Under the pieces are notes generated by a model, which saw nothing but the letters and a program-made list of their open reading frames with translations, was not told where the DNA came from and did no database searches. The translations under genes and the position numbers were made by a program. Source: a virus. Taken from it: 64,000 nt of DNA. Where the stretch lies: IMG/VR virus record IMGVR_UViG_3300035670_000028, positions 1-64,000 of that record. One strand, given 5' to 3'. Positions 676 through 62,677 of the stretch are shown piece by piece. Within the stretch, counting starts at the first letter, position 1. Each line of letters starts with the position of its first letter.

Positions 676-701
676 GTCTAAGCGCTACAGGAAGGGTGGA
701 T

Positions 702-1910: not shown

Positions 1911-1923
1911 GAGAGTGTTTTCT

Positions 1924-3063: not shown

Positions 3064-3118
3064 TTTCAATGAGATCAGATCCCATCGTGTTTGGCCGGTC
3101 CTGTAGGCTCACAACTTG

Positions 3119-3125
3119 ATACTTA
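3119..3125 (+). promoter_or_regulatory. ATACTTA putative late promoter
   Basis: Recurrent intergenic heptamer found upstream of structural genes. Confidence 0.55.
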
Positions 3126-3166
3126 CGTCTAGCGCGTTTAGCGCCCCATTGACGTGAGGATTTTTG

Positions 3167-3727
3167 ATGTCGAAGACGGGACGTGAGAGCCTATCCAAGC
3201 TGAGAACTTTGGTCGACGACCTCTGCGACAGGGACGAGGGGATCAAGCGCGACGTCTCCCTGTTTGAGGCTGTTTTTCACAACTTCCCAGTACCAGTTGC
3301 CATATGGCTCAGTGATGAGAAGGGGCACTGTGTGTCACGCAGGGTCTCCGGCAATGGCTCCAGGGGATGGCAGGACCCTGAGGGAACGATCGACAGCGTC
3401 TTCAGCATCTACCGGTGCCCGGAGCTGAGGAAGCAGATCGACAGGCACTTCAAGCGCGCGGTGAAGGGGAAGCAGCTGAGCTTCCTGACCGAGGTTGAGG
3501 GCACCTGCGTGTGGACCCGACTGACGCCTCGATTCACAGGAAGCGAGTGCACCGGCGTGATTGGGATCTCGTGGGACATCACCGCGAACTATAGGATGTA
3601 CCAGATCCTCCGCAGAGTGGAGGCGCTTCAAGTTCCAGGTGTCGACCTCGACAGCCTCAAGACAGAGGCCCAGGGCGCAATTGGCACCAGCATCATCAAG
3701 AAGCTTTTAGAGGAGGCAGAGAAATGA
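3167..3727 (+). CDS. Stand-alone PAS/PAC-domain protein
   Basis: FEAVFHNFPVPVAIW PAS start and GVIGISWDIT PAC end; no output domain. Confidence 0.65.
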   Translation: MSKTGRESLSKLRTLVDDLCDRDEGIKRDVSLFEAVFHNFPVPVAIWLSDEKGHCVSRRVSGNGSRGWQDPEGTIDSVFSIYRCPELRKQIDRHFKRAVKGKQLSFLTEVEGTCVWTRLTPRFTGSECTGVIGISWDITANYRMYQILRRVEALQVPGVDLDSLKTEAQGAIGTSIIKKLLEEAEK

Positions 3728-4074
3728 GCAGTGATTCTCCGTCTGGCGACCGCCGCCAAAATGGATGGAACGAGTATTCCAAGCTCGTCCTCAAGGAACT
3801 GGAGACCCTCGCCGACAGCATCGACAGCCTGCGCACCGAGATCCAGCAGGTGAAGCAGGAGATCGCCAAGATGCAGGTTCGGGAGGACAAGGTGAATGAG
3901 CTCAAGGACTGGAAGGCCAAGATGGACGAGGCCGCCACACCGACCCAGATCAAGGAGGTCGTCAAGCAGGTGGATGACCTCAAGCTCTTTAAGACCAAGG
4001 CGATCACAGTGTTCGCAGTGGTGCAGTTTCTGATGGCAGCTTTTGCGCTGCTGATCAGATTTATCGATAGGTGA
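3724..4074 (+). CDS. Coiled-coil protein with C-terminal transmembrane helix (possibly holin-like)
   Basis: Heptad-rich body, hydrophobic tail AITVFAVVQFLMAAFALLI, ATGA overlap with the PAS gene. Confidence 0.55.
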   Translation: MSSDSPSGDRRQNGWNEYSKLVLKELETLADSIDSLRTEIQQVKQEIAKMQVREDKVNELKDWKAKMDEAATPTQIKEVVKQVDDLKLFKTKAITVFAVVQFLMAAFALLIRFIDR

Positions 4075-4084
4075 GGAGAAATAA

Positions 4085-5254
4085 GTGGCCACATTCATAC
4101 AGACGACCGCGCCCACGCCGTTTGGCTTCTTCGACTCGGACACAACGTTCCAGACCGAGGCGGACGCCATGGTCGTCTTTGTGAAGAGGAAGCTGGGAGA
4201 CGACATCCTCTCCGTTGAGCTCACCAAGAAGCAGATCTGGGCGTGCTTTGAGGAGGCGGTGCTTGAGTACGGCGCGCTGATCAACCAGTACCAGGCAAAG
4301 TCCCAGCTTCTCAACCTCCTCGGTGTTGAGACAGGATCCCTCTCGGGCGCCGAGCAGAAGCTCCCCCGTGAGAACCTGGAGTACGTCCTCCGCCAGGCTG
4401 AGCCGTACGGCATGGAGGCCTCTCTCGGAGGCTCCTACACGTCAATGTCAGGTTCCATTCAGCTATCTCAAGGGCAGCAGGACTACGACATTTACACTGA
4501 CCTCAAGGATGGCAGCGGCAATCTCATCTTCTCTAGCAGCCTCAACACACCGCGCTCCAAGATGAAGATCATGGAGGTGTTCCACTACAACCCGCAGGCC
4601 GCGTATCGCTTCTTTGACACGACATCCGCCATCAACTACCTGAACAATGAGTTCGCGTTCGAGTCCTTCACACCTGAGACTGTGTTCTACATCCTTCCCA
4701 CCTTCGAGGACGTGCTCCGTGGAGGAATGCTCAACATCTCCCAGAGGGTGAGGCGGTCCAACTACTCCTACCGCATTGTGGGAACCAAGCTCAGAATATT
4801 CCCAATGCCGACCGAGGGCGCGCCTAAGAGCCTGTGGGTGAGAGTGCAGTTCGCTGCAAATCCACTCTCCTCACCGTACGGCGACGCATCAATCAACGGA
4901 ACAAGCAACCTCTCTAACGTGCCGTACGGCAACCTCCAGTATGGCAAGCTCAACTCTATCGGTCGACAGTGGATCAGGCAGTACTGCCTTGCCCTGGCGA
5001 AGGAGCTCCTGGGACTCATTCGATCAAAGTTTTCCACTGTTCCTATACCTGGTGCGGATCTCACCCTAAACGGTGCCGATCTGGTGACGCAGGGACGCGA
5101 GGAGCAGACAGAGCTAATGACCCAGCTGAAGGAGATGCTCGACTCCCTCACATACAGCAAGCTCCTCGAGCAGAAGGCAGCGGAGGTCGACAACCTCCAG
5201 AAGATCCTCAGGAATATTCCCATTCCAAACGGCAAAGCAATTCTCATGGGCTGA
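4085..5254 (+). CDS. Neck protein (T4 gp13-like)
   Basis: LSVELTKKQI and WIRQYCLALAKELLGLIRSKF..IPG..LTLNG resemble gp13-type neck proteins; position before the sheath genes fits. Confidence 0.75.
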   Translation: MATFIQTTAPTPFGFFDSDTTFQTEADAMVVFVKRKLGDDILSVELTKKQIWACFEEAVLEYGALINQYQAKSQLLNLLGVETGSLSGAEQKLPRENLEYVLRQAEPYGMEASLGGSYTSMSGSIQLSQGQQDYDIYTDLKDGSGNLIFSSSLNTPRSKMKIMEVFHYNPQAAYRFFDTTSAINYLNNEFAFESFTPETVFYILPTFEDVLRGGMLNISQRVRRSNYSYRIVGTKLRIFPMPTEGAPKSLWVRVQFAANPLSSPYGDASINGTSNLSNVPYGNLQYGKLNSIGRQWIRQYCLALAKELLGLIRSKFSTVPIPGADLTLNGADLVTQGREEQTELMTQLKEMLDSLTYSKLLEQKAAEVDNLQKILRNIPIPNGKAILMG

Positions 5255-5266
5255 TAGGAGCGTCTC

Positions 5267-5926
5267 ATGGCAAGACTTTTCATAACGCCCCGGGAGATAG
5301 ACTTCATAAGCGACATTACGAAGGAGATCACCAAGGACGTCCGCGGCCAGAAGATCTACTACTACGGAGTCCGTGAGGACCTCTCTCAGGTCCACGACGT
5401 CTACGAGGAGTCTCCGGAGAAGGTGTTCAATCCACCTATTGAGCTGGAGGCCTCTGTTGAGTGGGAGCAGCCTGTTATCACTACCAATAAGTTCGGCTCT
5501 GAGACGCTGTCAAAAGTCGTCTTCTATGCCCACACTCGAGATCTGCTCGATCGAGACATTGCGGTGAAGGTGGGAGACTATTTCTCATACGGTCAGGAGT
5601 TCTATGAGATCACATCTGTCATCATTGAGAAGCAGGTCTACGGTCAGATTGAGCACCAGGTGGGTAAGAAGGTGTCGGGTATCCAGGCGCGCCGCGGTCT
5701 TATCGATCGCCCAGCAAACGGTCCCACATCCGAGGAGGATCTCGATGCAGGATCTGTTCAGACGGTGTTCGATCAGCAGAGGGGCTATGAGCAGAATAGC
5801 TTGGGTCCCACTGAGGACAAGCGGCAGCTAGTCGAGGACGGAAAGCTCGATCCAGGATTAACAGGCCCCAAGATAGTTAAGGAGCAGGGCTCAGAGCCCA
5901 CATCCTTCTTCTACGGAGATGAGTGA
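5267..5926 (+). CDS. Neck/head-closure protein (gp14-like)
   Basis: Synteny; VYEES.EKVF and VGDYFSYG..FYEI motifs. Confidence 0.6.
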   Translation: MARLFITPREIDFISDITKEITKDVRGQKIYYYGVREDLSQVHDVYEESPEKVFNPPIELEASVEWEQPVITTNKFGSETLSKVVFYAHTRDLLDRDIAVKVGDYFSYGQEFYEITSVIIEKQVYGQIEHQVGKKVSGIQARRGLIDRPANGPTSEEDLDAGSVQTVFDQQRGYEQNSLGPTEDKRQLVEDGKLDPGLTGPKIVKEQGSEPTSFFYGDE

Positions 5927-42548: not shown

Positions 42549-43151
42549 ATGAAGTGGACAACAAAGGTATCGCCGCTGATCAAGGAAATTGAGCTCAGGA
42601 AGAGCCCAGTCATCATTCGAGTCAACAAGTTCGATGAGGAGTCTGCCCTCAAGTTCGATCAAGAGGTGGCACAGGCCCACAATACCGGTCAGAAGGTGAT
42701 TCCTGTGGTCATTGATTCATACGGAGGGCAGGTGTACTCCCTCATGTCGATGATCTCAGCCATCAAGCACGCTGAGCTTCCTGTGGCCACGATCGTCGAG
42801 GGTAAGGCGATGAGCTGCGGAGCTGTCCTGCTCACCTTCGGCGCAGACGGCATGAGGTTCGCTGATCCTAATTCCACGATAATGGTGCACGATGTCTCCT
42901 CCATGGAGCTCGGCAAGGTCGAGGAAGTGAAGGCAGGCGCAGCAGAGGCCGATCGACTGAATGAGAAGATCTACACCATGATGGCCAGGAACTGCGGTAA
43001 GCCAGACGATTACTTCCTCAAGATCGTCGATGGTAAGAAGCACGCTGACTGGTTCTTCGACGCCGAGGAGGCCCTCAAGCATGGGTTCGTCAATCACCTG
43101 AGGGTGCCAAAGCTGAACGTCGAGGTCGCTGTCACAATCGATTTCGAGTGA
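42549..43151 (+). CDS. ClpP-family protease
   Basis: IDSYGG, AMSCG (Ser), MVHD (His), DWFFDAEEALKHG. Confidence 0.85.
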   Translation: MKWTTKVSPLIKEIELRKSPVIIRVNKFDEESALKFDQEVAQAHNTGQKVIPVVIDSYGGQVYSLMSMISAIKHAELPVATIVEGKAMSCGAVLLTFGADGMRFADPNSTIMVHDVSSMELGKVEEVKAGAAEADRLNEKIYTMMARNCGKPDDYFLKIVDGKKHADWFFDAEEALKHGFVNHLRVPKLNVEVAVTIDFE

Positions 43152-48090: not shown

Positions 48091-48639
48091 GTGAGCGATT
48101 TCGACATTTTTCTAGACACAGACAATGAGCTGGCCTTCACAGTCGCGATCGAAGGCGCCAATGAGGCAGCAGTGAGAAGCCAGTTTATCCTTGAGGGGCC
48201 ACGTGGAATCAGCCTGTGCTTCGAGGGCCGGGCATCTGGCGCTGAGATCACAGTTGGAGTTCCGACGCTCAAGGGAATCATACGAGAGGGCCTGTACAAC
48301 ACGCGGCTAGAAGTGATCGTTGACGACCGCGTCTTTACACCGCTCCAGATGCAGGCAAACGTGAAGCCGGCGATCAAGGTCGAGGCTGTTGTTAGGACTG
48401 CAGCAAAGGTGGGAGGACCGGTCGTCACAGCTGCTGTTGTCAATAGGACGAAGCCGCTTGTTGAGACCGCCGTCGAGAAGCCAGCAGCTCCTCCGCCGGC
48501 TCCAATACCAAGAGCAGCCACTGTGCCAGTGACGCAGGTAAAGCCGCCTGTCGCACCTGTTCGACCAGTTGCGAAAGACCCTCCGATGAGACCCACATCT
48601 GAACTTGACAGCTTATTGGATAGTTTAGAGAGTGAATGA
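48091..48639 (+). CDS. Hypothetical protein with Pro-rich C-terminus
   Basis: AAGGAAGG RBS; ATAGTTA at 48039. Confidence 0.65.
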   Translation: MSDFDIFLDTDNELAFTVAIEGANEAAVRSQFILEGPRGISLCFEGRASGAEITVGVPTLKGIIREGLYNTRLEVIVDDRVFTPLQMQANVKPAIKVEAVVRTAAKVGGPVVTAAVVNRTKPLVETAVEKPAAPPPAPIPRAATVPVTQVKPPVAPVRPVAKDPPMRPTSELDSLLDSLESE

Positions 48640-48685
48640 CACTTTACTCGGCTAGGATCCTGCCTATATTAAGACACGAGAATAA

Positions 48686-51235
48686 ATGATCAAGTCGCCC
48701 GCATCGATACTGTTCGACATCAACGGCATTGCGACAGCAGTGTCCGCCTCGGACCAGCCAACGTCAGGCGCCCTGGGGCATGTGATGGCAGGCTTCGACG
48801 AGACGAAGTCGGTCAGGTACGCCTCATTCATCGGTGATGCCCTCAAGGTCGATGGCCTCGTGAATATCGCCTCGAGCGATTCGTTCTCGAGCGCAATCGT
48901 GGGCAGCAGGTACAACCAGCTGGAGATCGCCTACGATTCCACCGATCCTGACAGCATCGATAAGATAACTGTCACGAAATCGAACGGCGGCGATGCCATC
49001 AACTCAGGTGGCCAGGCTGTTTTCAGTACCTCAGTGGCCACGAACGGCGGGATCAAGGCAGTAACTGATGCCACCGTATCCTACCGCCCGCACGCTGAGG
49101 TGTACGCTGCCTTCACCTGCATATTCACGGCAGGGGTTGCTGATAGCTACCAGCGGATCGGCATCTACGATAGCAACAACGGATTCTTCATCGGATACGA
49201 GGGCACCTCGTTCGGAGTAACGATCCGCAAGGCAGGCTCCGATACAACCACCGCCCGCGCCTCCTTCAACCTGGATACTCTCACCGGCGCCTCGGACTCG
49301 AAGTACACCCGCGCTGGAGTTCCTGAAACCCTGGATCCCACGAAGGATAACCTCTACCGGATCAGGTACGGGTGGCTGGGCGCAGCACCGATCGTATTCG
49401 AGGTGCTATCACCGGATGGCGGCTGGGTGCCATTCCACATCATCAGGCACCCGAACACCAACGCTGCAACCACGATCAACGATCCTGACCTCCCGATCAC
49501 CCTGGATGCGCAGAAAACTGCAGGCGCCACCAACATCACAATGTCGACCGCCTGCTGGGCTGCTGGCACCACGAGCGATCTTGACCGAGTAACTGCCACG
49601 ATATCTGATGATACTCTGGCGAAGCTGACCAGATCTGTTATAGCCGGCCAAACAACCGGCGGCGGTGGCGGATACGTGAACGTGAAGGTTACGCCGAGCG
49701 GTGCCCTCACGGTAGAGATCGATGATGGCGGCGGCAGCATCACCGTGGATGGCGTGATCACTGGATCAGGTGATGTTGGCATCCTCAGGCAGGCGGCCAC
49801 CCGCGATCTCTTCATCACCGGCTCAGTGGGTATCACGGAGGCACACGGGGTATTCAGCGGCACCCTCCCATCCACCGGAATGCCGGCAGGGTTCTCCGAT
49901 GGCACCCTCATGCAGGCTGCACGGGTGTACGATCTGAACACCTCCACGGGATCGGCGAACGAGGAGCACGTGCTCGGTGTGAGCCTGCGCTCGAGCAGCG
50001 TTTCAGGATCCCAGGAGCTGGGCACGATCTCGAACCCGCTCATCACCTCACCCGGCCCATACGGGAAAACGGTTTTCGGTGAGGAGAGGGTTGCCCTCCC
50101 ATTCGCCCTCGCTGATCTTATCAACAAGTACGAGATCACTCCCACCGAGTACTCCACGCTAACGAGCTCGGTTGGCACTCCCACGATCCTGCACGTTCCG
50201 GATGAATCTGCCATCCGGCTAACTGTGGATGGCACATCCGGGAGCTTCGGCAGGCTCCGCACGAACACCTTCTACCGGTACCAATCCGGCAAGGGGCAGA
50301 ACATCAAGATGACCCTGTACCACGGTGATACAGGCGAATCTGATCAGGTGAGGCGGTGGGGCTACTTCGATGAGGGTGATGGCCTCTTCTTCCAGCTATC
50401 GGGCTCGAACCTGGGCGTAGTGGAGAGGAAATCCACCACTGGATCCCCCACCGAGCTGTTCTACTCCCAATCTGCCTGGAACGTGGATCCCCTAGATGGC
50501 ACCGGCCCGAGCGGGATCACCCTCGATATCACGAAGAGCCAGATATACGAGATCAGGTTCCAGTGGCTGGGCGTAGGATTCGTTGATTATTACATCAACG
50601 GATATCGGATCCACAATATCCAGCACGCGAACCTCGTTTCCGGCCCCTACATGAAAACAGGCCAGCTTCCACTATCCTGGGAGGTGGAGAACAACCTCTC
50701 ATCATCAGCAGGGAGCATGACAACAGTGTGCTCATCCGTTCTTTCTGAGAACGGAGAGCCACCCCCAGAGTTCAGCTTCGCCGCCTTCAACTCCACCCCT
50801 GTGAGCGTAACCACAACCGAGGTTCCGGTCCTGAGCATCCGCCCGAAGGCAACCTACAATGGGATAACGAACAGGATCATCACCCTCCCGAAGAAATCCG
50901 TGGTTTCCACTGAGGGCTCGCGCATATCCTACCGGATCCTGTACAATGCAACCCTCACCGGCGCCTCATGGGCATCCGTGGCATCCACATCCGGAACCGA
51001 GTTCGATGTATCTGCCTCTGCATTCACGGGCGGCGAAACACTGTTCTACGGGTTCCTTCCCAACAGCAATGATGCCGAGGGCGCTGAGCTGGAGAAGTAC
51101 TTCAGCATCCTGGCCAGGAAGCTGCGCCAGAACGCATTCGCCACAGGTGTTGATACCCTCACGATCGTGGCGAGGAACGAGGCTGCAGGTTCAACCTCAG
51201 TGCGCGCAGCACTGGTATTCACAGAGGTGCGGTGA
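48686..51235 (+). CDS. Large beta-rich virion protein with two related domains (fibre/receptor-binding-like)
   Basis: Duplicated R.G..D...G.F, .N.D.L.G and Y.I...WLG motifs. Confidence 0.65.
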   Translation: MIKSPASILFDINGIATAVSASDQPTSGALGHVMAGFDETKSVRYASFIGDALKVDGLVNIASSDSFSSAIVGSRYNQLEIAYDSTDPDSIDKITVTKSNGGDAINSGGQAVFSTSVATNGGIKAVTDATVSYRPHAEVYAAFTCIFTAGVADSYQRIGIYDSNNGFFIGYEGTSFGVTIRKAGSDTTTARASFNLDTLTGASDSKYTRAGVPETLDPTKDNLYRIRYGWLGAAPIVFEVLSPDGGWVPFHIIRHPNTNAATTINDPDLPITLDAQKTAGATNITMSTACWAAGTTSDLDRVTATISDDTLAKLTRSVIAGQTTGGGGGYVNVKVTPSGALTVEIDDGGGSITVDGVITGSGDVGILRQAATRDLFITGSVGITEAHGVFSGTLPSTGMPAGFSDGTLMQAARVYDLNTSTGSANEEHVLGVSLRSSSVSGSQELGTISNPLITSPGPYGKTVFGEERVALPFALADLINKYEITPTEYSTLTSSVGTPTILHVPDESAIRLTVDGTSGSFGRLRTNTFYRYQSGKGQNIKMTLYHGDTGESDQVRRWGYFDEGDGLFFQLSGSNLGVVERKSTTGSPTELFYSQSAWNVDPLDGTGPSGITLDITKSQIYEIRFQWLGVGFVDYYINGYRIHNIQHANLVSGPYMKTGQLPLSWEVENNLSSSAGSMTTVCSSVLSENGEPPPEFSFAAFNSTPVSVTTTEVPVLSIRPKATYNGITNRIITLPKKSVVSTEGSRISYRILYNATLTGASWASVASTSGTEFDVSASAFTGGETLFYGFLPNSNDAEGAELEKYFSILARKLRQNAFATGVDTLTIVARNEAAGSTSVRAALVFTEVR

Positions 51236-51648
51236 TGGCCACATTCGATACAGATAGGATAACCACAACCCGCCTCGATTCCTGGGCCGAGATCAGGAAG
51301 TACCTCGATGGCACGATCGCCTCACTCGCCTTCCAGTTCGATGATCGCGGGGATTTCTACACGATCATCACCGAGCCGTACGCAGGGATCACCCTGCAGT
51401 ACTCGATCAAGAAGGATGATGGGCCCGAGCAGAGCGATTTCGAGAACAACTACAAGGATCTGGCACCCCGCCGAACTGGAACCTTCGATGGGAACAGTAA
51501 TGCAACTCTGGTTACCAGCAATGGGCAGAGCGTGCAGATCGTTAACTCGCTCCGCCTCGAGCAGCTCCTATCCCAGGTGCTGCAGGAGCTGAAGAGGATG
51601 AATTCTCAGCTGCAGATAATTACAGATGAGGAAAACGATCTACTATAG
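51232..51648 (+). CDS. Hypothetical protein
   Basis: GTGA overlap; C-terminal coiled coil. Confidence 0.65.
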   Translation: MMATFDTDRITTTRLDSWAEIRKYLDGTIASLAFQFDDRGDFYTIITEPYAGITLQYSIKKDDGPEQSDFENNYKDLAPRRTGTFDGNSNATLVTSNGQSVQIVNSLRLEQLLSQVLQELKRMNSQLQIITDEENDLL

Positions 51649-51666
51649 AGCACTGGAGATGAACCG

Positions 51667-52242
51667 ATGAACTACATTCAGGATGGAACCGGCAAGGGCT
51701 ATCTCGCCGAGGTAACAGAGCACAATCAGCTTTCGATCGCAGGAATCGCAGATACGAGCTATGATGCTGCCTCCCAAACGGGGGAGAGCTTCAACGTGAA
51801 CACGGAGTTCGTTTCGATCACAGTTGGCACAGAAACCCCCCTGTTCTACTTCAAGAACAATGAATCGAATCCAGCAGTGATCGTGGGTTGGTTCATCGGA
51901 ATTGGGCTAGCCGGCGGCGCTGCCACCGAGAACGCGATCCTTCGAACGTATGCGAATCCCACTTCAGTTTCCGGTGGAGTTAGCCTAACAACCGTGAACA
52001 GAACGATCGGATCAGGCAGAACCTTCTCCTTCGATGCGAAGAAGCAGGATAGCGGAACTCCACTCACCGGCACACTGCCATCAACTCCGGTCCTGTACCA
52101 AACGCAAACGGCATCATCCCGCGTGTTCGGAAACGTGTACCTCACCGTTCCAAAGGGCAACTCGCTGATCGTTACGTGCCAGCTGAACGGTGCACAAACA
52201 GCGAACATTTACACAGGCTTCACCGGCTTCGTGGCAGGATGA
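51667..52242 (+). CDS. Virion-protein-like paralog 1
   Basis: N-terminal IQDGTGKGYLAEVTEHNQL. Confidence 0.65.
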   Translation: MNYIQDGTGKGYLAEVTEHNQLSIAGIADTSYDAASQTGESFNVNTEFVSITVGTETPLFYFKNNESNPAVIVGWFIGIGLAGGAATENAILRTYANPTSVSGGVSLTTVNRTIGSGRTFSFDAKKQDSGTPLTGTLPSTPVLYQTQTASSRVFGNVYLTVPKGNSLIVTCQLNGAQTANIYTGFTGFVAG

Positions 52243-52258
52243 GGAGAAGGAGCACACC

Positions 52259-52846
52259 ATGGCAAGAATAGAGGATGGCAGGGGCAAGGGATTCCAGGTA
52301 GCTGTTGATTCCACCAACCGGTTGGAGGTTCACGCTGCCACTGTTGATGAGGAGAGAGTTGCAACCATCGATGGTGAGGCATGGCAGTTTGGCAGTGCCA
52401 CGGTTGCCTTCACGGCAGCAACAGCATCCGCGATCCTGTTCGTGAAGAACACCGATACAAGAGATATGGTTATCGATCGCCTCCGCCTGCACCTAGGCAC
52501 GGTCACGGGAGGCACCGGAGATTGGACACTGGGAATCGTTAGGAATCCCACCGCGGGAACCCTAGTTTCTGCCGGCACTGTGATCACGCCCACGAACATC
52601 AACCACGGATCATCGAAGGAGCCAACCGGCACGTTCCTCCGCGGAGTGCAGGGCTCAACCCTCACTGATGGCACCACCTCATCATTCCCGATCAAGTCAT
52701 CGGGAGATGGAATCATCATCTTCCCGTTCGGCAGGATCCTGCCAACAGGTGCCTCGATCGGGATCAGCGTGACCCCACCAACAGGCACCACCGCAGCGAA
52801 CGCGGTGGCAGTTCTGAGGGGCTACTACCCAGCTGCAGATGTGTGA
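52259..52846 (+). CDS. Virion-protein-like paralog 2
   Basis: IEDGRGKGFQVAVDSTNRL; AAGGAG RBS. Confidence 0.65.
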   Translation: MARIEDGRGKGFQVAVDSTNRLEVHAATVDEERVATIDGEAWQFGSATVAFTAATASAILFVKNTDTRDMVIDRLRLHLGTVTGGTGDWTLGIVRNPTAGTLVSAGTVITPTNINHGSSKEPTGTFLRGVQGSTLTDGTTSSFPIKSSGDGIIIFPFGRILPTGASIGISVTPPTGTTAANAVAVLRGYYPAADV

Positions 52847-52860
52847 GGGCGTGAGGGCAG

Positions 52861-53490
52861 ATGATTAAGAACCTCATAGTAGATGGAGAGGGCTCCGGGA
52901 GGATCGCCGCTGTAACCCCCCAGAATGCCCTCAAGGTCCTGCCCCTGCCCACCACATCCCGCGGATTCACGGCGCGCGAGCTCGCCAGCCTGCGCATATA
53001 CCGAGAGTTCCTCAGCAACACAGCCGGCTCCACCGAGATGGCAGTGGATGGCTCGGTCACGAACGTGGAGTTCAGAATTGTTGCTGCCAGCACCCAAACG
53101 AAGTGGATCAAGCAGCTCAGGTTCACCCTCGAGGATGCGAACATGGAGCTCACCACATCAGATTTCCGTAGGTTCGGAGCAGCAACTGCAACGAACACGC
53201 CCCTCACCAATGGGATCCAGATCGAGGCAGTGCAGGGAGGAATACTCACCAATATTGCTGCCGAGCCGATCACCGTTCTCGGAGACTTCCTCAACTACGC
53301 GGATGCCTACCTCAACTTCTCGAACGCGATCTCCACGAACGAGGATTTCGTGCTCTTCGACTTCGACTTCATGACTCCAGTTGTGCTCGTGCCAGGAAGC
53401 AACGATTACATAGCAGTTCGCATAAGGGACAACCTCACCGCAGTGAACACGTTCAGGTGCCTCGGAAGGGGGATCGCGGAGATTCTATGA
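52861..53490 (+). CDS. Virion-protein-like paralog 3
   Basis: IVDGEGSGRIAAVTPQNAL. Confidence 0.65.
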   Translation: MIKNLIVDGEGSGRIAAVTPQNALKVLPLPTTSRGFTARELASLRIYREFLSNTAGSTEMAVDGSVTNVEFRIVAASTQTKWIKQLRFTLEDANMELTTSDFRRFGAATATNTPLTNGIQIEAVQGGILTNIAAEPITVLGDFLNYADAYLNFSNAISTNEDFVLFDFDFMTPVVLVPGSNDYIAVRIRDNLTAVNTFRCLGRGIAEIL

Positions 53491-53930
53491 TAACAGGAAC
53501 GATCGTAAGCGGCCCCAGGGCAGCAGATGGCTCACAGGTGGTCACCACCACACCCTACGCGTACTCCAACGAGAGGACGAAGTTCTCCGGGCACTTCTAC
53601 ACCTGCCCACCTGGAACATCACAGCACTCAACAGCCACACCGGGAGTGATCCGGCTCCAGGGAGGAACCTACTGGGCCCGGGGCGCCACAGCGGGAGACA
53701 GGGTTACATTCGAGGTGGTGGATGCCGACAATGTCCTGGGCGGAGGGGCGGGAGCTGTTGTCAGCCAGTACGTGAGCGAGCTTCCTGTTGCCCCCTGGGA
53801 CCACCACATCGAGGTGTCATCGCCGAACGCCGGCACGGTTCCCGCTGGCCTCTACCTGCGGATCACGTACGTGAACACCGGCGCGAGTGACGTCCAGTTC
53901 GGTGTGACTTATCGCTGGTATCAGCAGTGA
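53487..53930 (+). CDS. Hypothetical protein
   Basis: ATGA overlap; beta-rich. Confidence 0.6.
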   Translation: MITGTIVSGPRAADGSQVVTTTPYAYSNERTKFSGHFYTCPPGTSQHSTATPGVIRLQGGTYWARGATAGDRVTFEVVDADNVLGGGAGAVVSQYVSELPVAPWDHHIEVSSPNAGTVPAGLYLRITYVNTGASDVQFGVTYRWYQQ

Positions 53931-53938
53931 GGCCTGCT

Positions 53939-53966
53939 TGAACATTCACTGCCCCGCGTCTATACA
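53939..53966 (+). promoter_or_regulatory. Sigma70-like promoter (TGAACA-N16-TATACA), apparently leaderless
   Basis: ATG at 53973 lies 6 nt after the -10 box. Confidence 0.5.
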
Positions 53967-53972
53967 TGGGGC

Positions 53973-54434
53973 ATGGACCAACCCAGCAGTTGGACTCCGC
54001 CTCGCTCACCGCACGGCCTCCTCCAGGAGGACCTGTGGCCCAATGAGTGGCGGATCCTCGTTGCATGCCTCATGCTCAACCTCACCACCCGCAAGCAGGT
54101 CGACGGTGTGATCCACGAGTTCTTTCGGCGGTGGCCCGATCCGGGATCCCTGGCGGCCGCAGATTTGAACGAGCTCGAGGGGCTGATCAAACCCCTAGGG
54201 ATGTGGCGAAAGCGGTCACAGACGCTGCTCAGATTCAACCGGGAGTATATGGCAGGAGGCTGGTCGACCGCCCGGGACCTCCACGGCTGCGGAAAGTACG
54301 CCGATGACTGCTGGCGGATATTCTGCCGCGGTGACTGGCGCGCCGTGCAGCCCCAGGACCACATGCTCAACAAGTACCACGATCACCTCGCCAGGACCCT
54401 TGGCGAGACCAATAACAACGCAACAATGGAGTAG
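53973..54434 (+). CDS. MBD4-like HhH mismatch DNA glycosylase
   Basis: WTPPRSP..L.QE, LN.T, KPLG, LHG.GKY..D..RIFC...W..V.P.DH.LNKYHD match the MBD4 glycosylase domain; catalytic Asp retained. Confidence 0.9.
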   Translation: MDQPSSWTPPRSPHGLLQEDLWPNEWRILVACLMLNLTTRKQVDGVIHEFFRRWPDPGSLAAADLNELEGLIKPLGMWRKRSQTLLRFNREYMAGGWSTARDLHGCGKYADDCWRIFCRGDWRAVQPQDHMLNKYHDHLARTLGETNNNATME

Positions 54435-54438
54435 ACGA

Positions 54439-54909
54439 ATGATTGCATTTCTCAAGTGGCTCAACAAGTACGAGATGCCTGTTCACTTTCTTGTGATGAT
54501 CTCTGTTTTCTATGGCATCTCTCTAGGCATCACAGCTGCAACAGCTCCCTCAGCCGTGGAGGCGCTCGTTGTCTCCTTCACTGCAGGAATGCTGCTTGTC
54601 GTGATCGGCGCTCTGTCGTTTAAGGTCGCGACCCTTTTCACCGACGCGATCAAGAATGCCGTCGCCCGAGCCACGCTGGAGCAGATGAGGGAGAGCCTTC
54701 CTCCGGCGGAGCTGCTCACAAAGGAGAAGATTGTGGACTACACAAGCAGCAATGTGATGATTGTCAAGAACGTGCCCGACGAGCTGAAGGAGGCTGTGGC
54801 AAACCTCAACGCGGCAGCCTCTGCTGATGCAACCGAGGTCGCACCGATCCCGCCCGTTGAGAAGAAGAAGCGCGCGCCCCGTTCCAAGTCCATCAAGAAG
54901 GAGGGCTGA
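54439..54909 (+). CDS. Membrane protein (two TM helices, basic tail)
   Basis: Two hydrophobic stretches at the N-terminus. Confidence 0.65.
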   Translation: MIAFLKWLNKYEMPVHFLVMISVFYGISLGITAATAPSAVEALVVSFTAGMLLVVIGALSFKVATLFTDAIKNAVARATLEQMRESLPPAELLTKEKIVDYTSSNVMIVKNVPDELKEAVANLNAAASADATEVAPIPPVEKKKRAPRSKSIKKEG

Positions 54910-54910
54910 G

Positions 54911-55717
54911 GTGCCCGAAGGCAGCGAAGTCAAGCTGTTCGGAGAGTCCCTCGCGAAGGTTGTGTCTGGAAAGGACATTACTTCTGTTGATGTGATCTCC
55001 GGGCGGTACGCGAAGAGCGATGTTGAGGGTCTGGACCTGCTTAAGGCTCGACTTCCGACGAAGGTGGTGGGAATTGGAGTGCACGGCAAGTTCCTGTACT
55101 GGATTGTCACCAACGACGTCTTCATCTACAACACGCTGGGCATGACTGGCAGCTGGTCGACCCAGGAGACGAAGCACTCGCGCGTGGTGTTCCAGCTGAG
55201 TGACGGCGTGAGCGTCTACTTCAACGATCAGAGGAACTTTGGCACGCTCAAGATGGTTCCAGGACGAGACGAGCTCGTGAAGAAGCTGAAGTCGCTGGGC
55301 CCTGATATGCTCTCTGAGGCCGTTTCGGACGCGAGGTTCACAGAGAGCCTCATGAAGCGCCCAGAGTGGACGCTGGCAGAGGCAGTGATGGACCAGAGCC
55401 TGATCTCCGGCGTGGGCAACTACGTCAAGGCGGAGTCCCTCTACAGAGCACAGCTCTCTCCGCACAGGCAGGTGCAGTCGCTCTCGCCCACTGACATGTC
55501 CCGACTGCGCCAGAGCATTCAGCTCGTCCTCAACGAGGCGTACAGGAGGGGAGGTGCCTCGATTCAGACCTACCGTGACTTCGAGGGCAATGAGGGCGAA
55601 TACACCCAGAGGTTCCTCGTCTATAATAGGGACCAAGATCCAAACGGCAATAGTGTCGTGCGTGAGAAGACAGCAGACGGCAGGACCACGCACTGGGTTC
55701 CTGCAGTTCAAAAGTGA
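54911..55717 (+). CDS. Fpg/Nei-family DNA glycosylase (zincless finger type)
   Basis: N-terminal PEGSEV, HGKF, LGMTG, DQRNFG, LGPD, H2TH SGVGNY; C-terminal GRTTHWVPAVQ without Cys4. Confidence 0.9.
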   Translation: MPEGSEVKLFGESLAKVVSGKDITSVDVISGRYAKSDVEGLDLLKARLPTKVVGIGVHGKFLYWIVTNDVFIYNTLGMTGSWSTQETKHSRVVFQLSDGVSVYFNDQRNFGTLKMVPGRDELVKKLKSLGPDMLSEAVSDARFTESLMKRPEWTLAEAVMDQSLISGVGNYVKAESLYRAQLSPHRQVQSLSPTDMSRLRQSIQLVLNEAYRRGGASIQTYRDFEGNEGEYTQRFLVYNRDQDPNGNSVVREKTADGRTTHWVPAVQK

Positions 55718-55723
55718 GGCAAT

Positions 55724-55987
55724 ATGGAAAACGAGACCACATACACATTCTCCCCCGAGCTGCTCGCCACTGTGGCACAGCTCCTTCAGCTGGCGATCCT
55801 CACAGGCACTGACCTGTATGATCACCTCCAGACCCTACAGATGGTTGTCCAGGACGGAAAGCTGCACGTGAGCGCGGAGTTCAAGCAGAAGCTGGCCGAA
55901 GAGATCACTCGTCTCACGTCCCAGGCTGAGTCCTTGGCAACGCAGCAGCTCTCCTTTGGCTTCAAGCTCGACCAGAGCGGCAACTGA
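55724..55987 (+). CDS. Hypothetical protein
   Basis: GAGG RBS; located within the operon. Confidence 0.65.
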   Translation: MENETTYTFSPELLATVAQLLQLAILTGTDLYDHLQTLQMVVQDGKLHVSAEFKQKLAEEITRLTSQAESLATQQLSFGFKLDQSGN

Positions 55988-55995
55988 GGCGACAA

Positions 55996-56376
55996 ATGGA
56001 GTCGGATGATAAGCTTCGACACATGTTTGAGCTGCGTGAGCAGTTCATGCGTGCACTAAAGTCTCAGAAGTCGAGCATCTACCCAAAGTGGCCTGTCGAC
56101 CTCGCCGACAAGAAGTCACAGCAGGCCATTCGGGACACCGCGCTGAAGGGCGTCGAGGAGGTGTTCGAGGCGATGCAGCACTGCAAGAACTGGAAGCCCC
56201 ACCGGGTGACCGAGGATCGATCATTCGATCGTGAGAAGTTCCTCGAGGAGATGGTGGACGCCTTCAACTACTTCTTCTCCGTGCTCGTTCTCACTGGAGT
56301 GACCGCAGATGAGCTCCACGAGGCCTACGTCGAGAAGGATAGGATCATCCACGAGCGCCTGAAGTCGGGGTACTGA
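55996..56376 (+). CDS. All-alpha NTP pyrophosphatase (dimeric dUTPase/MazG-like)
   Basis: EEVFEA..NWKPH..FLEEMVDAFNY. Confidence 0.75.
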   Translation: MESDDKLRHMFELREQFMRALKSQKSSIYPKWPVDLADKKSQQAIRDTALKGVEEVFEAMQHCKNWKPHRVTEDRSFDREKFLEEMVDAFNYFFSVLVLTGVTADELHEAYVEKDRIIHERLKSGY

Positions 56377-57329
56377 TGTCGTTCGAGACAATCTCAGGTG
56401 CCCTCACGCGCCAGAGGGCCTACTCTGACAAATTCTTCGAGCCCGGAGGCCTCTCTGTCAAGGAGAAGGAGGAGATCACAAAGACCTTCGCCCTCTCCTT
56501 GCACACCGAGGTCTCCGAGATCGCATCCGCGGTCAATTTTAAGGACCACCGGCGCGTCCAGGAGCCTGTCGACCACAATAAACTGCTGTACAAGTCTGTG
56601 GACGCCTTCAGGTACGTGCTCGCCCTGCTCAACCTGTGGGAAATTGACTCCCAGACCTTCATTCAGGCCTGCGAGGACAAGGACCTGTACCTCAACCGAC
56701 GCCACCTTGAGTCGGAGAGGACCCGCGGCGACCGTCCTGTTGTCATTTTTGACGCCGACGACGTGATCGCTGAGTTCCGGGCAGCATTTTTCGAGTGGCT
56801 GGACCAAAAGTGGGGCATTAAGGCTGACATTAACGACAAGCAGTACTACAGCGCAGCTGAGATGCAGAAGGGCGGAGTCGACTCTGAGACCGCGTTCAGC
56901 ACTTTCATCGCAGACGGGGGCTTTAGGACGCTCGGAGTCAATGGCCACGCCTTCGAGGCGATGCGAATGTGTCAGGAGGCGGGATTTTGGGTCCAGATTC
57001 TCACCGCGAGGCCCTCTGGGAACCTGAAGTGCTTCTACGACACTCACCGATGGCTCCACGAGGCCAAAATTCCCTACGACAGCGTCGCTTTCTCACCAGA
57101 GAAGTACTTGTGGCTCGTCGGACAGGACTTTTACTCAAAAAAGCAGCTCGTCTGCGTCGTGGATGACTCCTCCAAGCACGCGTCTGAGTTCGCCAAGCAC
57201 GGAGTGCCCGTAATTGTGCCCGTTAAGTCCTACAATGAGGACACGCAGGGCATTAAGGGCATCACTCGAGTGGACTTCTCACACGTCGGTGGCCGCGGGC
57301 TGTTCGACCTGATCAGAAGTCACGCCTGA
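56376..57329 (+). CDS. Degenerate MazG-like domain fused to a HAD 5'-nucleotidase-like domain
   Basis: N-terminal EVSEI..NFKDH..VDAFRY; HAD motifs FDADDV, LTARP, K, VVDDS. Confidence 0.7.
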   Translation: MSFETISGALTRQRAYSDKFFEPGGLSVKEKEEITKTFALSLHTEVSEIASAVNFKDHRRVQEPVDHNKLLYKSVDAFRYVLALLNLWEIDSQTFIQACEDKDLYLNRRHLESERTRGDRPVVIFDADDVIAEFRAAFFEWLDQKWGIKADINDKQYYSAAEMQKGGVDSETAFSTFIADGGFRTLGVNGHAFEAMRMCQEAGFWVQILTARPSGNLKCFYDTHRWLHEAKIPYDSVAFSPEKYLWLVGQDFYSKKQLVCVVDDSSKHASEFAKHGVPVIVPVKSYNEDTQGIKGITRVDFSHVGGRGLFDLIRSHA

Positions 57330-57341
57330 GTCCCGTTTCAC

Positions 57342-57369
57342 TGTACATTGTCGCCTAGATTGTTAGATT
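57342..57369 (+). promoter_or_regulatory. Sigma70-like promoter (TGTACA-N16-TAGATT)
   Basis: Upstream of the thyX-like gene. Confidence 0.5.
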
Positions 57370-57400
57370 TGACTGCCTCTCACGAAGGAAGGAATGTAGA

Positions 57401-58381
57401 ATGCCGCTGAATAAGGATTTGGAGCCCATTGAGCTTCCGATGGAGCTCAAGTTTGGTAGACCTGTCAAGACTGAGTACCTCAATGCCCTCGACGCGCTCA
57501 AGGTCGAGCTCGTGGACCACCCCACACGTCAACAGGCGTGGAATGTCGCGTGGCACTACGTCAAGGCGACGTGGGCCGATCGCCCGGACATCGATCCGTC
57601 TCGTGCGACAGAGCACGAGCTCTCCAAGAACCTCGAGGACGTGTTCGGCGGCAGGACCCTGCCCGCTCCGATGGAGTGCCTAGGCTTCACGTTCCGCCTC
57701 AGTGGCCTCTCCTTCCAGGATGTGACCCACATCATTCGCCACCGAGCTGGAACGTTCGCCGCGCAGTGCACAGGTGATCGCGACCTCCGCGACGATGCAG
57801 CAGTCATTCCTGAGCCCGTCCAGAACTCCCCCGAGTTCCTCGAGCGCTGGAAGCAGATCGTGGACGACGCGAAGGAGCTCTACGCCGACATGACCGACTC
57901 CAAGGTCGTCTCGATGATGGACGCTCGCCTCATCCTGCCGAAGTGCATGACCTCGTTCTACTACATGCGCCTGCCCCTCAAGGACCTCGTCGGGTTCATC
58001 TATCAGCGTAAAGATGTTGCAATCCAAACCGCCAGTGACAATATTCTTGCCGTTAAAATGGCTGTTGAAGTTGCAAAGGTCATTCCTGAGTTCACTTCTA
58101 TGATTGATTTTGATAAGCCTGACATGCATTTTGTAAAGACATTTAGAGTCAAGGACGGTGATAAGTGGGTTTCTAGAGGAACAAACTTGTATTGGCCTGC
58201 ACAGAAGAACGATATTTTCGAATATCACCCGAATGACACGATTTATCAGTCGACCAGAGAAGATCTCAATGGCACTGATGGTGTGGGTCCACAGAAGAAG
58301 TTCACAGAGCATTGGAACGCAGGCCTCGCTGAGTTCAATCAGATCAAGTCTGATTATAATGCCTGGCGTTCTCAAAAGTGA
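57401..58381 (+). CDS. thyX: Divergent flavin-dependent thymidylate synthase-like protein
   Basis: PMEC.GFTF, RHR-X7-C in place of RHR-X7-S, DARLILP. Confidence 0.7.
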   Translation: MPLNKDLEPIELPMELKFGRPVKTEYLNALDALKVELVDHPTRQQAWNVAWHYVKATWADRPDIDPSRATEHELSKNLEDVFGGRTLPAPMECLGFTFRLSGLSFQDVTHIIRHRAGTFAAQCTGDRDLRDDAAVIPEPVQNSPEFLERWKQIVDDAKELYADMTDSKVVSMMDARLILPKCMTSFYYMRLPLKDLVGFIYQRKDVAIQTASDNILAVKMAVEVAKVIPEFTSMIDFDKPDMHFVKTFRVKDGDKWVSRGTNLYWPAQKNDIFEYHPNDTIYQSTREDLNGTDGVGPQKKFTEHWNAGLAEFNQIKSDYNAWRSQK

Positions 58382-58600: not shown

Positions 58601-59435
58601 TAAGTCTGGTTTCTTCTTCTGTTCAAAAGAGTGCATTTATCTTGCACAAAAGAAGAACGGTGTCACGTATGAGCTTCGTCGAAAGAGATCGTTAGAAAAG
58701 TACGGTAAAGACTTTCCAATCTCTTGTGATGAGATCAAAGAAAAGCGCAAGAAGAATAATATTGAAAAGTATGGTGTTGCTAATACGTTTGAGCTTGATG
58801 CTGTTAAAGAGAAGACAAAGAAGACCACACGTGAGCGATATGGTGTCGATGTCTACTCACAAACCATAGAATTCAAGTCTAAAATTGAGGAAACAAATCT
58901 AAAGAGATTTGGGTACAAGTCTCCAATAGAAAATCCTGATATTCTCGCACAGCGCCGTCAAACAATGACAGACCGATATGGTGGACCATCAACTTTAGAG
59001 TCGCCTATTCTACGTGAAAAAATGGAAGCGACTTGTCGTGATTTGTTTGGAACATCGAATATAGTCATGTCACCGCAGTTTATTTCATCATCTATGGATA
59101 AGAAATTGCTAAAGACACACGGCAAGACATGGCAGCAGTACATAGATGATCTACCAGCTCTTCAGGATTATCGTCGTAAAGTTGAACACATTACACGGCA
59201 GCAAGCAGTTGAAACTTTGCCCTACTATGATAAATGGGGTGAATATCATCTTGATCACAAATTTTCTATTGCTGAAGGATTTAGGCAAGGGTTATCACCA
59301 GAAATCATTGGAAATATTGCAAATTTGGAATTTATTCCTGCCCACGAAAATATGAGTAAGCAGGATGATTGTTCAATTGACAAGCATAGTCTACTATTAG
59401 AAATTGAGAGGATGAAAGGTCATAACAATGAGTGA
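58539..59435 (+). CDS. Putative HNH homing endonuclease with (E/K)KYG repeats
   Basis: CAQC..FCSKEC; repeated EKYG/ERYG; YHLDHKFSI..GNIANL..IPAHENMSK; AT-rich. Confidence 0.75.
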   Translation: MNEKICAQCKTRFLPKNRLSNKSGFFFCSKECIYLAQKKNGVTYELRRKRSLEKYGKDFPISCDEIKEKRKKNNIEKYGVANTFELDAVKEKTKKTTRERYGVDVYSQTIEFKSKIEETNLKRFGYKSPIENPDILAQRRQTMTDRYGGPSTLESPILREKMEATCRDLFGTSNIVMSPQFISSSMDKKLLKTHGKTWQQYIDDLPALQDYRRKVEHITRQQAVETLPYYDKWGEYHLDHKFSIAEGFRQGLSPEIIGNIANLEFIPAHENMSKQDDCSIDKHSLLLEIERMKGHNNE

Positions 59436-59901
59436 AAATAAGTTTGGACGTACTTTGAAGATGTATCTTGCCGCAGGCTGGTTCAATCCCGTTCAGGATG
59501 CTGAACTCACTAGACTTGAACAGATCATGGAGGCACGTAAGGACTGGATTGAGATGGCGTCTCCTCGTCGTATCTTCATCTGTCCGCCAAATGCTTCGCG
59601 CGAGGTTCAAGATGCGACATATCAGGGCAATCTGAAGCACATTCGAGAAGCAGATTTTCTTGTAGTCAATACGCGCGACAAGGATCTAGGGACTATTATG
59701 GAGTGTGGATATGCCACTGCTTTCGACAAGCACATCATCTACTTCTGTGCTGGACTTCCTGCCGGCGCAAAGTTCAACCTGATGTTGAGCAGGTCAGGTG
59801 CGCGTGTGTGCACGACCTTCGAGCAGCTTGAGGACTACCTGGATCGCTGCAAGGCGGCAGGCGAGATGCTGTACGAGCCCTACGACAAGGAAATTGAGTG
59901 A
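59428..59901 (+). CDS. Nucleoside 2-deoxyribosyltransferase/N-glycosidase family protein
   Basis: YLAAGWF, ADFLVV..D.GTIMECGYA, FNLML. Confidence 0.8.
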   Translation: MSENKFGRTLKMYLAAGWFNPVQDAELTRLEQIMEARKDWIEMASPRRIFICPPNASREVQDATYQGNLKHIREADFLVVNTRDKDLGTIMECGYATAFDKHIIYFCAGLPAGAKFNLMLSRSGARVCTTFEQLEDYLDRCKAAGEMLYEPYDKEIE

Positions 59902-61870: not shown

Positions 61871-62217
61871 GCGAGATGAGCGAGATTGAGAGTGCTGAGG
61901 CACCGGTGGAGAAGAGAATTACACAGGCCCTGATCGATAATGCCTTCAGCTGCCTCGATGGCCACGGGCGGCTAACCTATGCTAGGGATGAGTGCTGCAC
62001 GATCCAGCAGGTTCTGCGGGAGGCCCACGGTGTGCACCTCTCCCTGAACGAGTGCCGGCGCTTCTGGGAGTGGAGATCGGGGCTGTGGGATGCTTCCTTC
62101 CTCACGCTGGGAGGGGCGGATGAACCGGGCACCCGGAAGGAGATCCTCGAGTTCTTCACCGAGTGGCTGGATGAGCTGGATATCTGGGAGTGGAACACTG
62201 CGGAAGAGGAGGATTGA
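61867..62217 (+). CDS. Hypothetical protein
   Basis: AAGGAG RBS; GTGA overlap. Confidence 0.6.
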   Translation: MSEMSEIESAEAPVEKRITQALIDNAFSCLDGHGRLTYARDECCTIQQVLREAHGVHLSLNECRRFWEWRSGLWDASFLTLGGADEPGTRKEILEFFTEWLDELDIWEWNTAEEED

Positions 62218-62218
62218 G

Positions 62219-62677
62219 ATGATCAAGAAGAGGAAGGGCTGGTTCAGGCACATTAAGCCGAGCTCCCCGGTGTGCCCGAGGAAGCCGGAGAGGATGCTGA
62301 AGCGCGAGAGGCTAACGATCCTGTATGAACACTGCGGGAGCAGGATGAACCTATCAGAGATTCCCCTCCCCGAGGGGAAGGGCCTGGCTGATATCCAGCT
62401 GAGCGCTAGCGGGGATGAGGATGGTGATATCACCCTCGAGTTCTACACCCGGGAGGAGTACGAGGAGGAGAACCCCCACTACGAGCGCGAGATGAAGCAC
62501 TACAAGGCAGTGTACGCCAAGTACGAGCAGCTGAGGGATGAGTTCAAGGCCGAGCTAGCTGAGTGGAAGGCGTGGAATGCCGAGCAGGATGCTGCTGATG
62601 TGAAGGAGCGCCTCGAGGCTGCAGAGAGGCTGCTCCGCCAGCACGGCCGGCTCCCTGGAGGCCCGAGTGTGGGCTGA
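62219..62677 (+). CDS. Hypothetical coiled-coil protein
   Basis: GAGGAGG RBS before MIKKRK. Confidence 0.6.
   Translation: MIKKRKGWFRHIKPSSPVCPRKPERMLKRERLTILYEHCGSRMNLSEIPLPEGKGLADIQLSASGDEDGDITLEFYTREEYEEENPHYEREMKHYKAVYAKYEQLRDEFKAELAEWKAWNAEQDAADVKERLEAAERLLRQHGRLPGGPSVG

Follow-up and report, generated by a model that had tools for sequence, protein, structure and literature searches.

The DNA considered here, from a large uncultured marine phage, is a window of 64,000 nucleotides at the start of an IMG/VR virus record of 147 kb, to which CheckV assigns a completeness of 44%. Our focus is a 153-aa open reading frame, which the initial annotation had described as an MBD4-type glycosylase domain with its own promoter, lying beside a tract of DNA depleted in the trinucleotide GWC (GAC or GTC). 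The genes and features around this reading frame are collected in Table 1.

Table 1. Features at and around the glycosylase locus, with coordinates counted from the first nucleotide of the window.
Feature	Coordinates	Strand	Basis or remark
RNR small and large subunits	before ClpP		gene order
ClpP	42549..43151	+	after RNR subunits
Unassigned and virion genes, 10.8 kb	between ClpP and MBD4-like gene		gene order
GWC-depleted tract A	48971..53000		context only; starts inside the gene of an 849-aa virion protein
TTGAAC-N17-TATACA	53938..53966	+	TTGAAC 53938-53943, TATACA 53961-53966; weak consensus match only
MBD4-family HhH-GPD glycosylase, stand-alone, 153 aa	53973..54434	+	ORF, phmmer, AF2/Foldseek
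156-aa protein, no family match	54439..54909	+	possible membrane-spanning hydrophobic stretches, by eye
Nei/Fpg-family glycosylase/AP lyase	54911..55717	+	phmmer 3a42, 3a45, 3vk7
87-aa ORF, no family match	55724..55987	+	similar-sized ORF (86-87 aa) at the same place in relatives
All-alpha NTP pyrophosphohydrolase-like protein	55996..56376	+	dUTPase_2; weak PRA-PH match
317-aa NT5C 5'-nucleotidase-like protein	56376..57329	+	weak match in the C-terminal half (E 8.6e-4; 19.7 bits, cut-off 24.8 bits)
Divergent ThyX-fold protein, core gene of the phage group	57401..58381	+	profile and conservation
DUF7487 protein	after ThyX-fold gene		gene order
Nucleoside 2-deoxyribosyltransferase-family protein (Nuc_deoxyrib_tr)	59428..59901	+	family match
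NAD-dependent epimerase	after Nuc_deoxyrib_tr-family gene		gene order

General family profiles say little about the 153-aa ORF: Pfam recognises only a generic HhH-GPD domain (28.8 bits), NCBIfam returns only nth, far under its cut-off, and a PHROGs scan gives no family. Comparison with all PDB chains by phmmer is far more specific. The only chains matched, with E-values between 6.7e-39 and 7.5e-37, are glycosylase domains of MBD4 proteins, among them mouse 1ngn and human 4e9e, 4dk9 and 6vjw, and the alignment to these domains is gap-free over query residues 6-139. All of the motifs on which the MBD4-type assignment had originally been based (SWTPPRSP, LHGCGKY, WRIFC and DHMLNKYHD) are found in the translation. 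An AlphaFold2 model, built with 27 homologues and with a mean pLDDT of 93, has the compact all-helical HhH-GPD fold of the MBD4 type, without an Fe-S cluster domain; Foldseek aligns it with 16 MBD4 entries at TMq 0.85-0.88, TMt 0.92-0.96 and an rmsd of 1.0-1.4 A, while other HhH-GPD families (MUTYH, MIG 1kea, EndoIII) reach only about 0.55 TM.

The description of the domain as stand-alone also holds, given that the match spans residues 6-139 and that distinct genes lie on either side. The ORF consists of the catalytic domain alone: the stop codon of the preceding gene is at 53928-53930, the ATG of the following one is at 54439, and the methyl-CpG-binding domain (PF01429), present in the animal-type hits P0145 and P0159, is absent from the 153 residues. 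Compared with two orthologues the gene has dN/dS values of 0.29 and 0.19, and it is thus under purifying selection. The ORF is an intact MBD4-family glycosylase from a widespread viral stand-alone branch. With its identity backed by sequence, fold and active-site residues, its probable activity is to remove T, U or hmU lying opposite G.

To place the active-site residues, we counted human MBD4 from its C-terminus and checked the numbering both in the 4evv D560N chain, which has Asn at the aligned position, and against the key residues named in PMC3479182. In the human enzyme Tyr540 contacts O2, Gln449 is essential (Q449A is inactive), Leu466 is a pocket residue, L506-G507 make main-chain contacts to the orphan G and Arg468 occupies the space vacated by the flipped base (PMC3479182). 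The phage protein has its catalytic Asp129 (in PQDHMLNKYHD, after the HhH motif) at the position of human D560, which is invariant across the 30 phage-type and 139 eukaryote-type sequences that we aligned. Its other correspondences, phage residue first, are Q18 to Q449, L35 to L466, N36 to N467, T38 to T469, L75-G76 to L506-G507, R81 to R512 and Y109 to Y540. Equivalents of D560, Y540, Q449, N467, T469, L506-G507 and R512 occur in all 30 phage-type sequences, bar one gap at Q449.

Overall, the resemblance to the mammalian MBD4/MED1 domain (human residues ~426-580; 1ngn, 3iho, 4dk9, 4e9e-h, 4evv, 4ew0, 6vjw) amounts to 42% (structure-based) to ~50% identity, gap-free over 134 residues of the same compact Fe-S-free HhH-GPD fold, with the catalytic Asp, Tyr540, Gln449, Asn467, Thr469, Leu506-Gly507 and the HhH glycines in common. 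Unlike the mammalian protein, the phage enzyme has neither the methyl-CpG-binding domain nor the linker, is paired with Nei, and differs in the intercalation loop and beside the catalytic residue. Human Arg468 is replaced by Leu37, with L, Q or C in 30 of 30 phage-type members; three residues further on, the position of Gly471 is an Arg (Arg40 here) that is invariant among the 30; and Lys562 is Met. Most eukaryote-type sequences carry K or R at 468 (110/139) and G or A at 471 (119/139), but position 468 is Q, C or V in 22 and position 471 is R in 11, not necessarily in the same proteins. The two loop replacements mean that the specificity of the phage enzyme could differ, a point to which we return below.

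MBD4 is usually regarded as a eukaryotic enzyme linked to CpG methylation, and the ORF had been called eukaryote-like, with a phylogeny including eukaryotic MBD4 proposed as a check. A word-indexed search of metagenomes found 156 stand-alone clusters of about 138-162 aa at 52-90% identity, and no longer or fused homologues; the long eukaryotic forms surfaced in an exhaustive search of representatives, which returned 2833 relatives at E<=1e-3, 189 of them at E<=1e-30. At the top of its ranking are long eukaryotic proteins (Phaeocystis, Cyanophora, Diadema, Sanguina, Nepenthes, Ipomoea), 41-52% identical over the domain. Among the homologues scanned with Pfam, the animal-type ones carry an MBD and the plant and algal ones do not. 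The plant/algal MBD4L type (Phaeocystis, Cyanophora, Nepenthes, Ipomoea) has the same catalytic domain at 45-52% identity and likewise lacks an MBD by Pfam, but its members are eukaryotic nuclear genes with N-terminal extensions of 200-1000 aa, and they fall in clades separate from that of the phages.

A FastTree phylogeny of 182 rows groups the stand-alone proteins in a single clade (35 rows, support 81), inside which 28 rows form a clade of their own with support 97, and IQ-TREE under LG+C20 recovers the same stand-alone clade from 63 rows (SH-aLRT 93). The trees do not nest the phage clade within any one eukaryotic lineage; they are unrooted and the backbone is poorly resolved, hence they give no direction of transfer. 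The viral clade is as deep as the eukaryotic MBD4 clades. A scan of 185,579 prokaryotic species genomes (GTDB) with a single phage-type loop pattern found no cellular relative, which is weak evidence. GenBank phages yielded no match to nucleotides 53000-58000, and a tblastn search of 50,697 phage records gave distant matches only, namely eight Xp12-group phages at 36-37% identity and cyanophage S-TIM54 at 32%. The proteins are already named by the automatic annotation of IMG, and our literature search found no paper on a phage MBD4. This deep, purely viral stand-alone clade shows that the MBD4 catalytic domain exists in phages in its own right, as a set of compact enzymes (~140-155 aa) for mismatch-specific excision.

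Now we consider the genes that accompany the glycosylase. The Nei-like protein matches 3a42, 3a45 and 3vk7 over its full length (E ~6e-47); the PDB search labels these formamidopyrimidine-DNA glycosylase, and we take them to be mimivirus Nei1, a NEIL1-like enzyme. The GTG start of the gene gives (M)PEGSEV and so exposes Pro2-Glu3, while the longest ORF (from 54827) would add a spurious Arg-rich leader overlapping the upstream gene. Pro2-Glu3 and a cysteine-free C-terminus are features in common with the mimivirus Nei1/NEIL1 type, and the missing cysteines point to a zincless protein. In close relatives, too, a gene of similar size stands between the MBD4-like and Nei genes, alike in size and position.

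The pairing with Nei recurs widely. In all six metagenomic contigs with genes listed, Nei lies directly or closely 3' of the MBD4-like gene. An MBD4-like gene is found within 10 kb of a ThyX-fold homologue (54-86% identity) at 13 of 80 loci, and in 11 of these 13 Nei is again directly or closely downstream. When whole contigs are considered, 16 of 49 related contigs have the gene, a patchy occurrence which argues that it is dispensable. The MBD4-like gene is therefore accessory, and it moves together with Nei. The replication and nucleotide block around it, typical of large marine phages, is kept in contigs of 100-270 kb which also code for DnaE and for RecA/UvsX-like, DnaB-like and gp32-like proteins. 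The GC content of loci with the gene is 0.381 against 0.353 without it (p=0.016), a difference confounded by phylogeny. On the other side of the gene, ClpP immediately adjoins the MBD4-like gene in contig L039 and a ClpP homologue is adjacent in contig G002, whereas the spacing is 8.6 kb in contig L013 and 10.8 kb here. The junction between ClpP and the MBD4-like gene is thus a place that collects variable inserts in this phage group.

The claim that the gene has its own promoter finds no support. In the 42-bp spacer before the glycosylase, the TATACA element ends 6 nt ahead of the ATG and lacks the T at the last -10 position. A consensus scan does not list the TTGAAC-N17-TATACA site, and the 7 sites that it does list in 14.5 kb equal what is found in shuffles (7.2).

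We next turn to the GWC-depleted DNA. Scoring depletion in 1-kb windows at no more than 15% of expectation across the 147 kb, we find depleted windows at 49.3-52.9, 61.7-69.1, 74.2-75.4, 138.3-140.2 and 145.2-147.1 kb, and an observed/expected ratio (o/e) of ~1.0-1.5 elsewhere. The five tracts of the record lie at 48971-53000, 61788-68875, 73300-75400, 138300-140200 and 145200-147186. The first of these, tract A, is as real as first described: positions 49001-53000 hold 15 GWC against ~140 expected, and the distance from tract to glycosylase, given as about 700 bp, measures ~690 bp. GAC/GTC within the tracts are at 0.04 of expectation and all other trinucleotides at 0.5 or above, with GAT/ATC (1.64x) and GTT/AAC (1.29x) enriched. 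These islands contain mainly short accessory ORFs together with the C-terminal part of the virion protein.

How could the glycosylase and these tracts be connected? The model put forward initially is that GWC cytosines are methylated, that the enzyme repairs their deamination, and that the phage backbone therefore keeps GWC while enzyme-less lineages, or donors of DNA, decay to GWT. The tract-enriched trinucleotides GAT/ATC and GTT/AAC are indeed the products of C-to-T change at GWC, but their excess is equally expected from synonymous avoidance. In three phages GWC-free islands lie within 1-7 kb of the gene. In the ThyX-flank loci, GWC o/e is 1.02 where the gene is present (n=13) and 1.05 where it is absent (n=37; p=0.33), so that the supposed correlation between the gene and GWC retention is not seen; none of the 80 loci has a GWC-free island. 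Across longer contigs, islands accompany the gene in our own record (16.8 kb), G002 (5.8 kb) and G007 (2.8 kb), the gene occurs without islands in G004, G005, G006, G008 and the complete 284-kb G016, and islands are lacking, with an o/e of 0.86-1.10, where the gene is absent (G026, G033 and 100 kb of G041). Since gene-less contigs keep their GWC, loss of GWC is no trait of lineages that lack the enzyme. The genomes with GWC-free islands (our own, G002, G007 and L015) all encode it, which is the observation that the initial annotation itself had named as speaking against its proposal.

Three further results weigh against the same model. A diffusible enzyme is incapable of producing a sharp contrast between islands and GWC-rich backbone inside one genome, and here the two share one genome and one enzyme. 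The start of tract B is common to our phage and L015, whose glycosylase is 90% identical, and over 484 aligned bases with 45 substitutions there is no GWC in either; because ~11% of random substitutions would make a GWC, the probability of this is about 0.005 (0.89^45), and avoidance is thus maintained between lineages that both encode the enzyme. Finally, no C5-methyltransferase gene (PF00145) was found in the 147-kb record or in 50 related contigs, two complete genomes among them, and the sole methyltransferase in the record is of the adenine type, although a host enzyme might supply the activity. We therefore hold this model to be extremely improbable. The caveat with which it came, that the two may be neighbours by coincidence, is more convincing: positions 48442-53961 (5.5 kb, containing tract A) have no counterpart in L015, L016 or L013, which have the same gene at the same place, and tract A thus sits within an insertion missing from relatives with the enzyme. 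We conclude that the glycosylase and tract A are neighbours by shared location at the variable junction with ClpP.

The distant homologues in Xp12-group phages also bear on the function of the enzyme. In Xp12, AXL_1 and Donnerlittchen the homologue (36% identity) opens an operon that continues with a nucleotide pyrophosphohydrolase (annotated in Xp12 as a HAD hydrolase), thymidylate synthase, dCMP deaminase and dihydrofolate reductase. These proteins (Xp12 QNN97216, AXL_1 gp65 and Donnerlittchen gp32, annotated as hypothetical, ENDO3c or endonuclease III) are also stand-alone, share the catalytic Asp, the Tyr, the Gln and the NLTT loop, and are likewise encoded beside nucleotide-metabolism genes. 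They differ in that identity is only 36-37%, the phages are small siphoviruses with fully 5mC-substituted DNA, and the gene is directly upstream of a dCMP-methylase operon, not beside Nei. All cytosine of Xp12 DNA is 5mC and the synthase homologue makes 5mdCMP, in a report that leaves the glycosylase unmentioned (bioRxiv 10.1101/2024.12.05.627091). A T:G glycosylase is what a 5mC genome needs, and among the functional associations of the viral family this is the best at hand. In our phage, however, no such pathway is apparent. A ThyA-type gene is found neither in the 147-kb record nor in 46 contigs of the ThyX-fold group, and a TET/JBP search gave no match in the record but none in control genomes either, and so is uninformative. 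With no C5-methyltransferase, ThyA-type or TET gene in 147 kb, which is ~44% of the genome, the data point to no special need for T:G over U:G repair. Distant MBD4-like carriers (48-51% identity) do have partial-length ThyA-family matches (57-74 bits), at G003 181873-182382 and G004 53866-54366.

The gene that could stand in for such a synthase is the ThyX-fold gene. Canonical ThyX proteins carry the motif RHRxxSxxxQSxRY; in the phage protein the RHR motif continues AGTFAAQCTGDR, and the protein scores 30.8 bits against thyX, with a cut-off of 87.9 bits, and has no PDB match (phmmer). Its conservation is nevertheless strong, at 54-86% identity across 110 viral contigs whose GC content runs from 25 to 56%, and dUTPase_2-like, NT5C-like and Nuc_deoxyrib_tr-like genes usually accompany it. 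It may simply make dTMP, or it may have another function. In the latter case, the pyrophosphohydrolase, nucleotidase-like, ThyX-fold and N-deoxyribosyltransferase-like proteins might together make a C5-modified pyrimidine at the level of the nucleotide pool, as in Xp12, and the glycosylase would be the repair arm that mends deamination products genome-wide. The distance from canonical thyX fits this idea, as does the order glycosylase, NTP pyrophosphohydrolase, methylase-type gene, which parallels the Xp12-group operon, and the four-gene set is present in most of the 80 related loci. That set is core, yet just about a third of the relatives have the glycosylase; the nearest cultured homologue of the ThyX-fold protein carries the plain annotation FAD-dependent thymidylate synthase; and the two dCMP-deaminase-family genes of the genome fit ordinary dTMP synthesis. 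On balance we find pool-level modification unlikely. An extension of it, in which MBD4-like and Nei form the repair arm of an undescribed ThyX-fold-based pyrimidine modification (with the pyrophosphohydrolase, nucleotidase-like and N-deoxyribosyltransferase-like genes among the partners) and the GWC-free islands reflect a GWC-directed process of the same phage group, dependent on modification or on a nuclease, strikes us as quite unlikely.

The remodelled loop raises one more alternative, namely that specificity has shifted towards another lesion, towards host DNA or towards damage inflicted by a deaminase-type defence of the host. Its appeal lies in the replacements at 468 and 471, uniform as they are in the phage-type proteins and uncommon in the eukaryote-type ones. 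Against this, the phage proteins keep the base contacts Q449 and Y540, the catalytic D560 and L506 with its contact to G, individual eukaryote-type proteins have comparable residues at one or other loop position, and the pairing with Nei points to repair. We regard a shifted specificity as very doubtful.

The reading that we favour, and consider likely, is that the ORF encodes a functional monofunctional mismatch glycosylase of the MBD4 type which starts base-excision repair genome-wide together with Nei and plays no role for GWC. From pairs with G the enzyme would flip out and excise T, U or a U substituted at position 5, these substrates being the deamination products of 5mC, C or 5hmC. The abasic site left behind would then be cleaved by the Nei-type glycosylase/AP lyase encoded just downstream, so that the phage would carry the first two steps of base-excision repair, presumably for its own DNA rather than that of the host. 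Such action would extend over the whole genome, with no preference for sequence context evident from the data. The same task, T:G repair after deamination of 5mC, is performed in bacteria and archaea by MIG/Mig.MthI-type thymine-DNA glycosylases (1kea) and by the Vsr endonuclease. MIG is also an HhH-GPD protein, but it is only distantly similar to the phage model (TM ~0.57, 22% identity) and carries an Fe-S cluster, and Vsr is an unrelated nuclease.

The GWC-free tracts are then a separate feature, more unusual than the glycosylase and not explained by it. GWC is at normal levels in L017 and L018, the relatives of the tract-A virion protein, and the glycosylase is missing from the whole of G001, the record that holds L017; a GWC-free donor lineage was sought and none was found, and the tract-B protein at 62090-62674 has no relative among viral contigs. 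The islands of G002 (1-5800) and G007 (1-1600 and 2901-4100) are homologous neither to ours nor to one another, that of G002 consisting of small ORFs without homologues in our genome. In the gene of the 849-aa virion structural protein (phrog_1645, 48686-51235) GWC is normal for the first ~100 codons and near zero thereafter, and this break suggests a recombination junction near 48971. In L015, too, the gene of a 607-aa protein is GWC-poor over its C-terminal two thirds (1746-3086, including a 700-bp gap), so the phenomenon recurs in other structural-gene tails. Also in tract A, three consecutive genes of ~190-210 aa at 51667-53490, with no Pfam or PHROG match, start alike (MNYIQDGTGKGY, MARIEDGRGKGF and MIKNLIVDGEGSG) and look like a tandem paralogue family. 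The islands at 73200-75400 and 145200-147186 share a repeated gene of ~300 bp with 70-74% nucleotide identity, which is also tandemly duplicated within the former.
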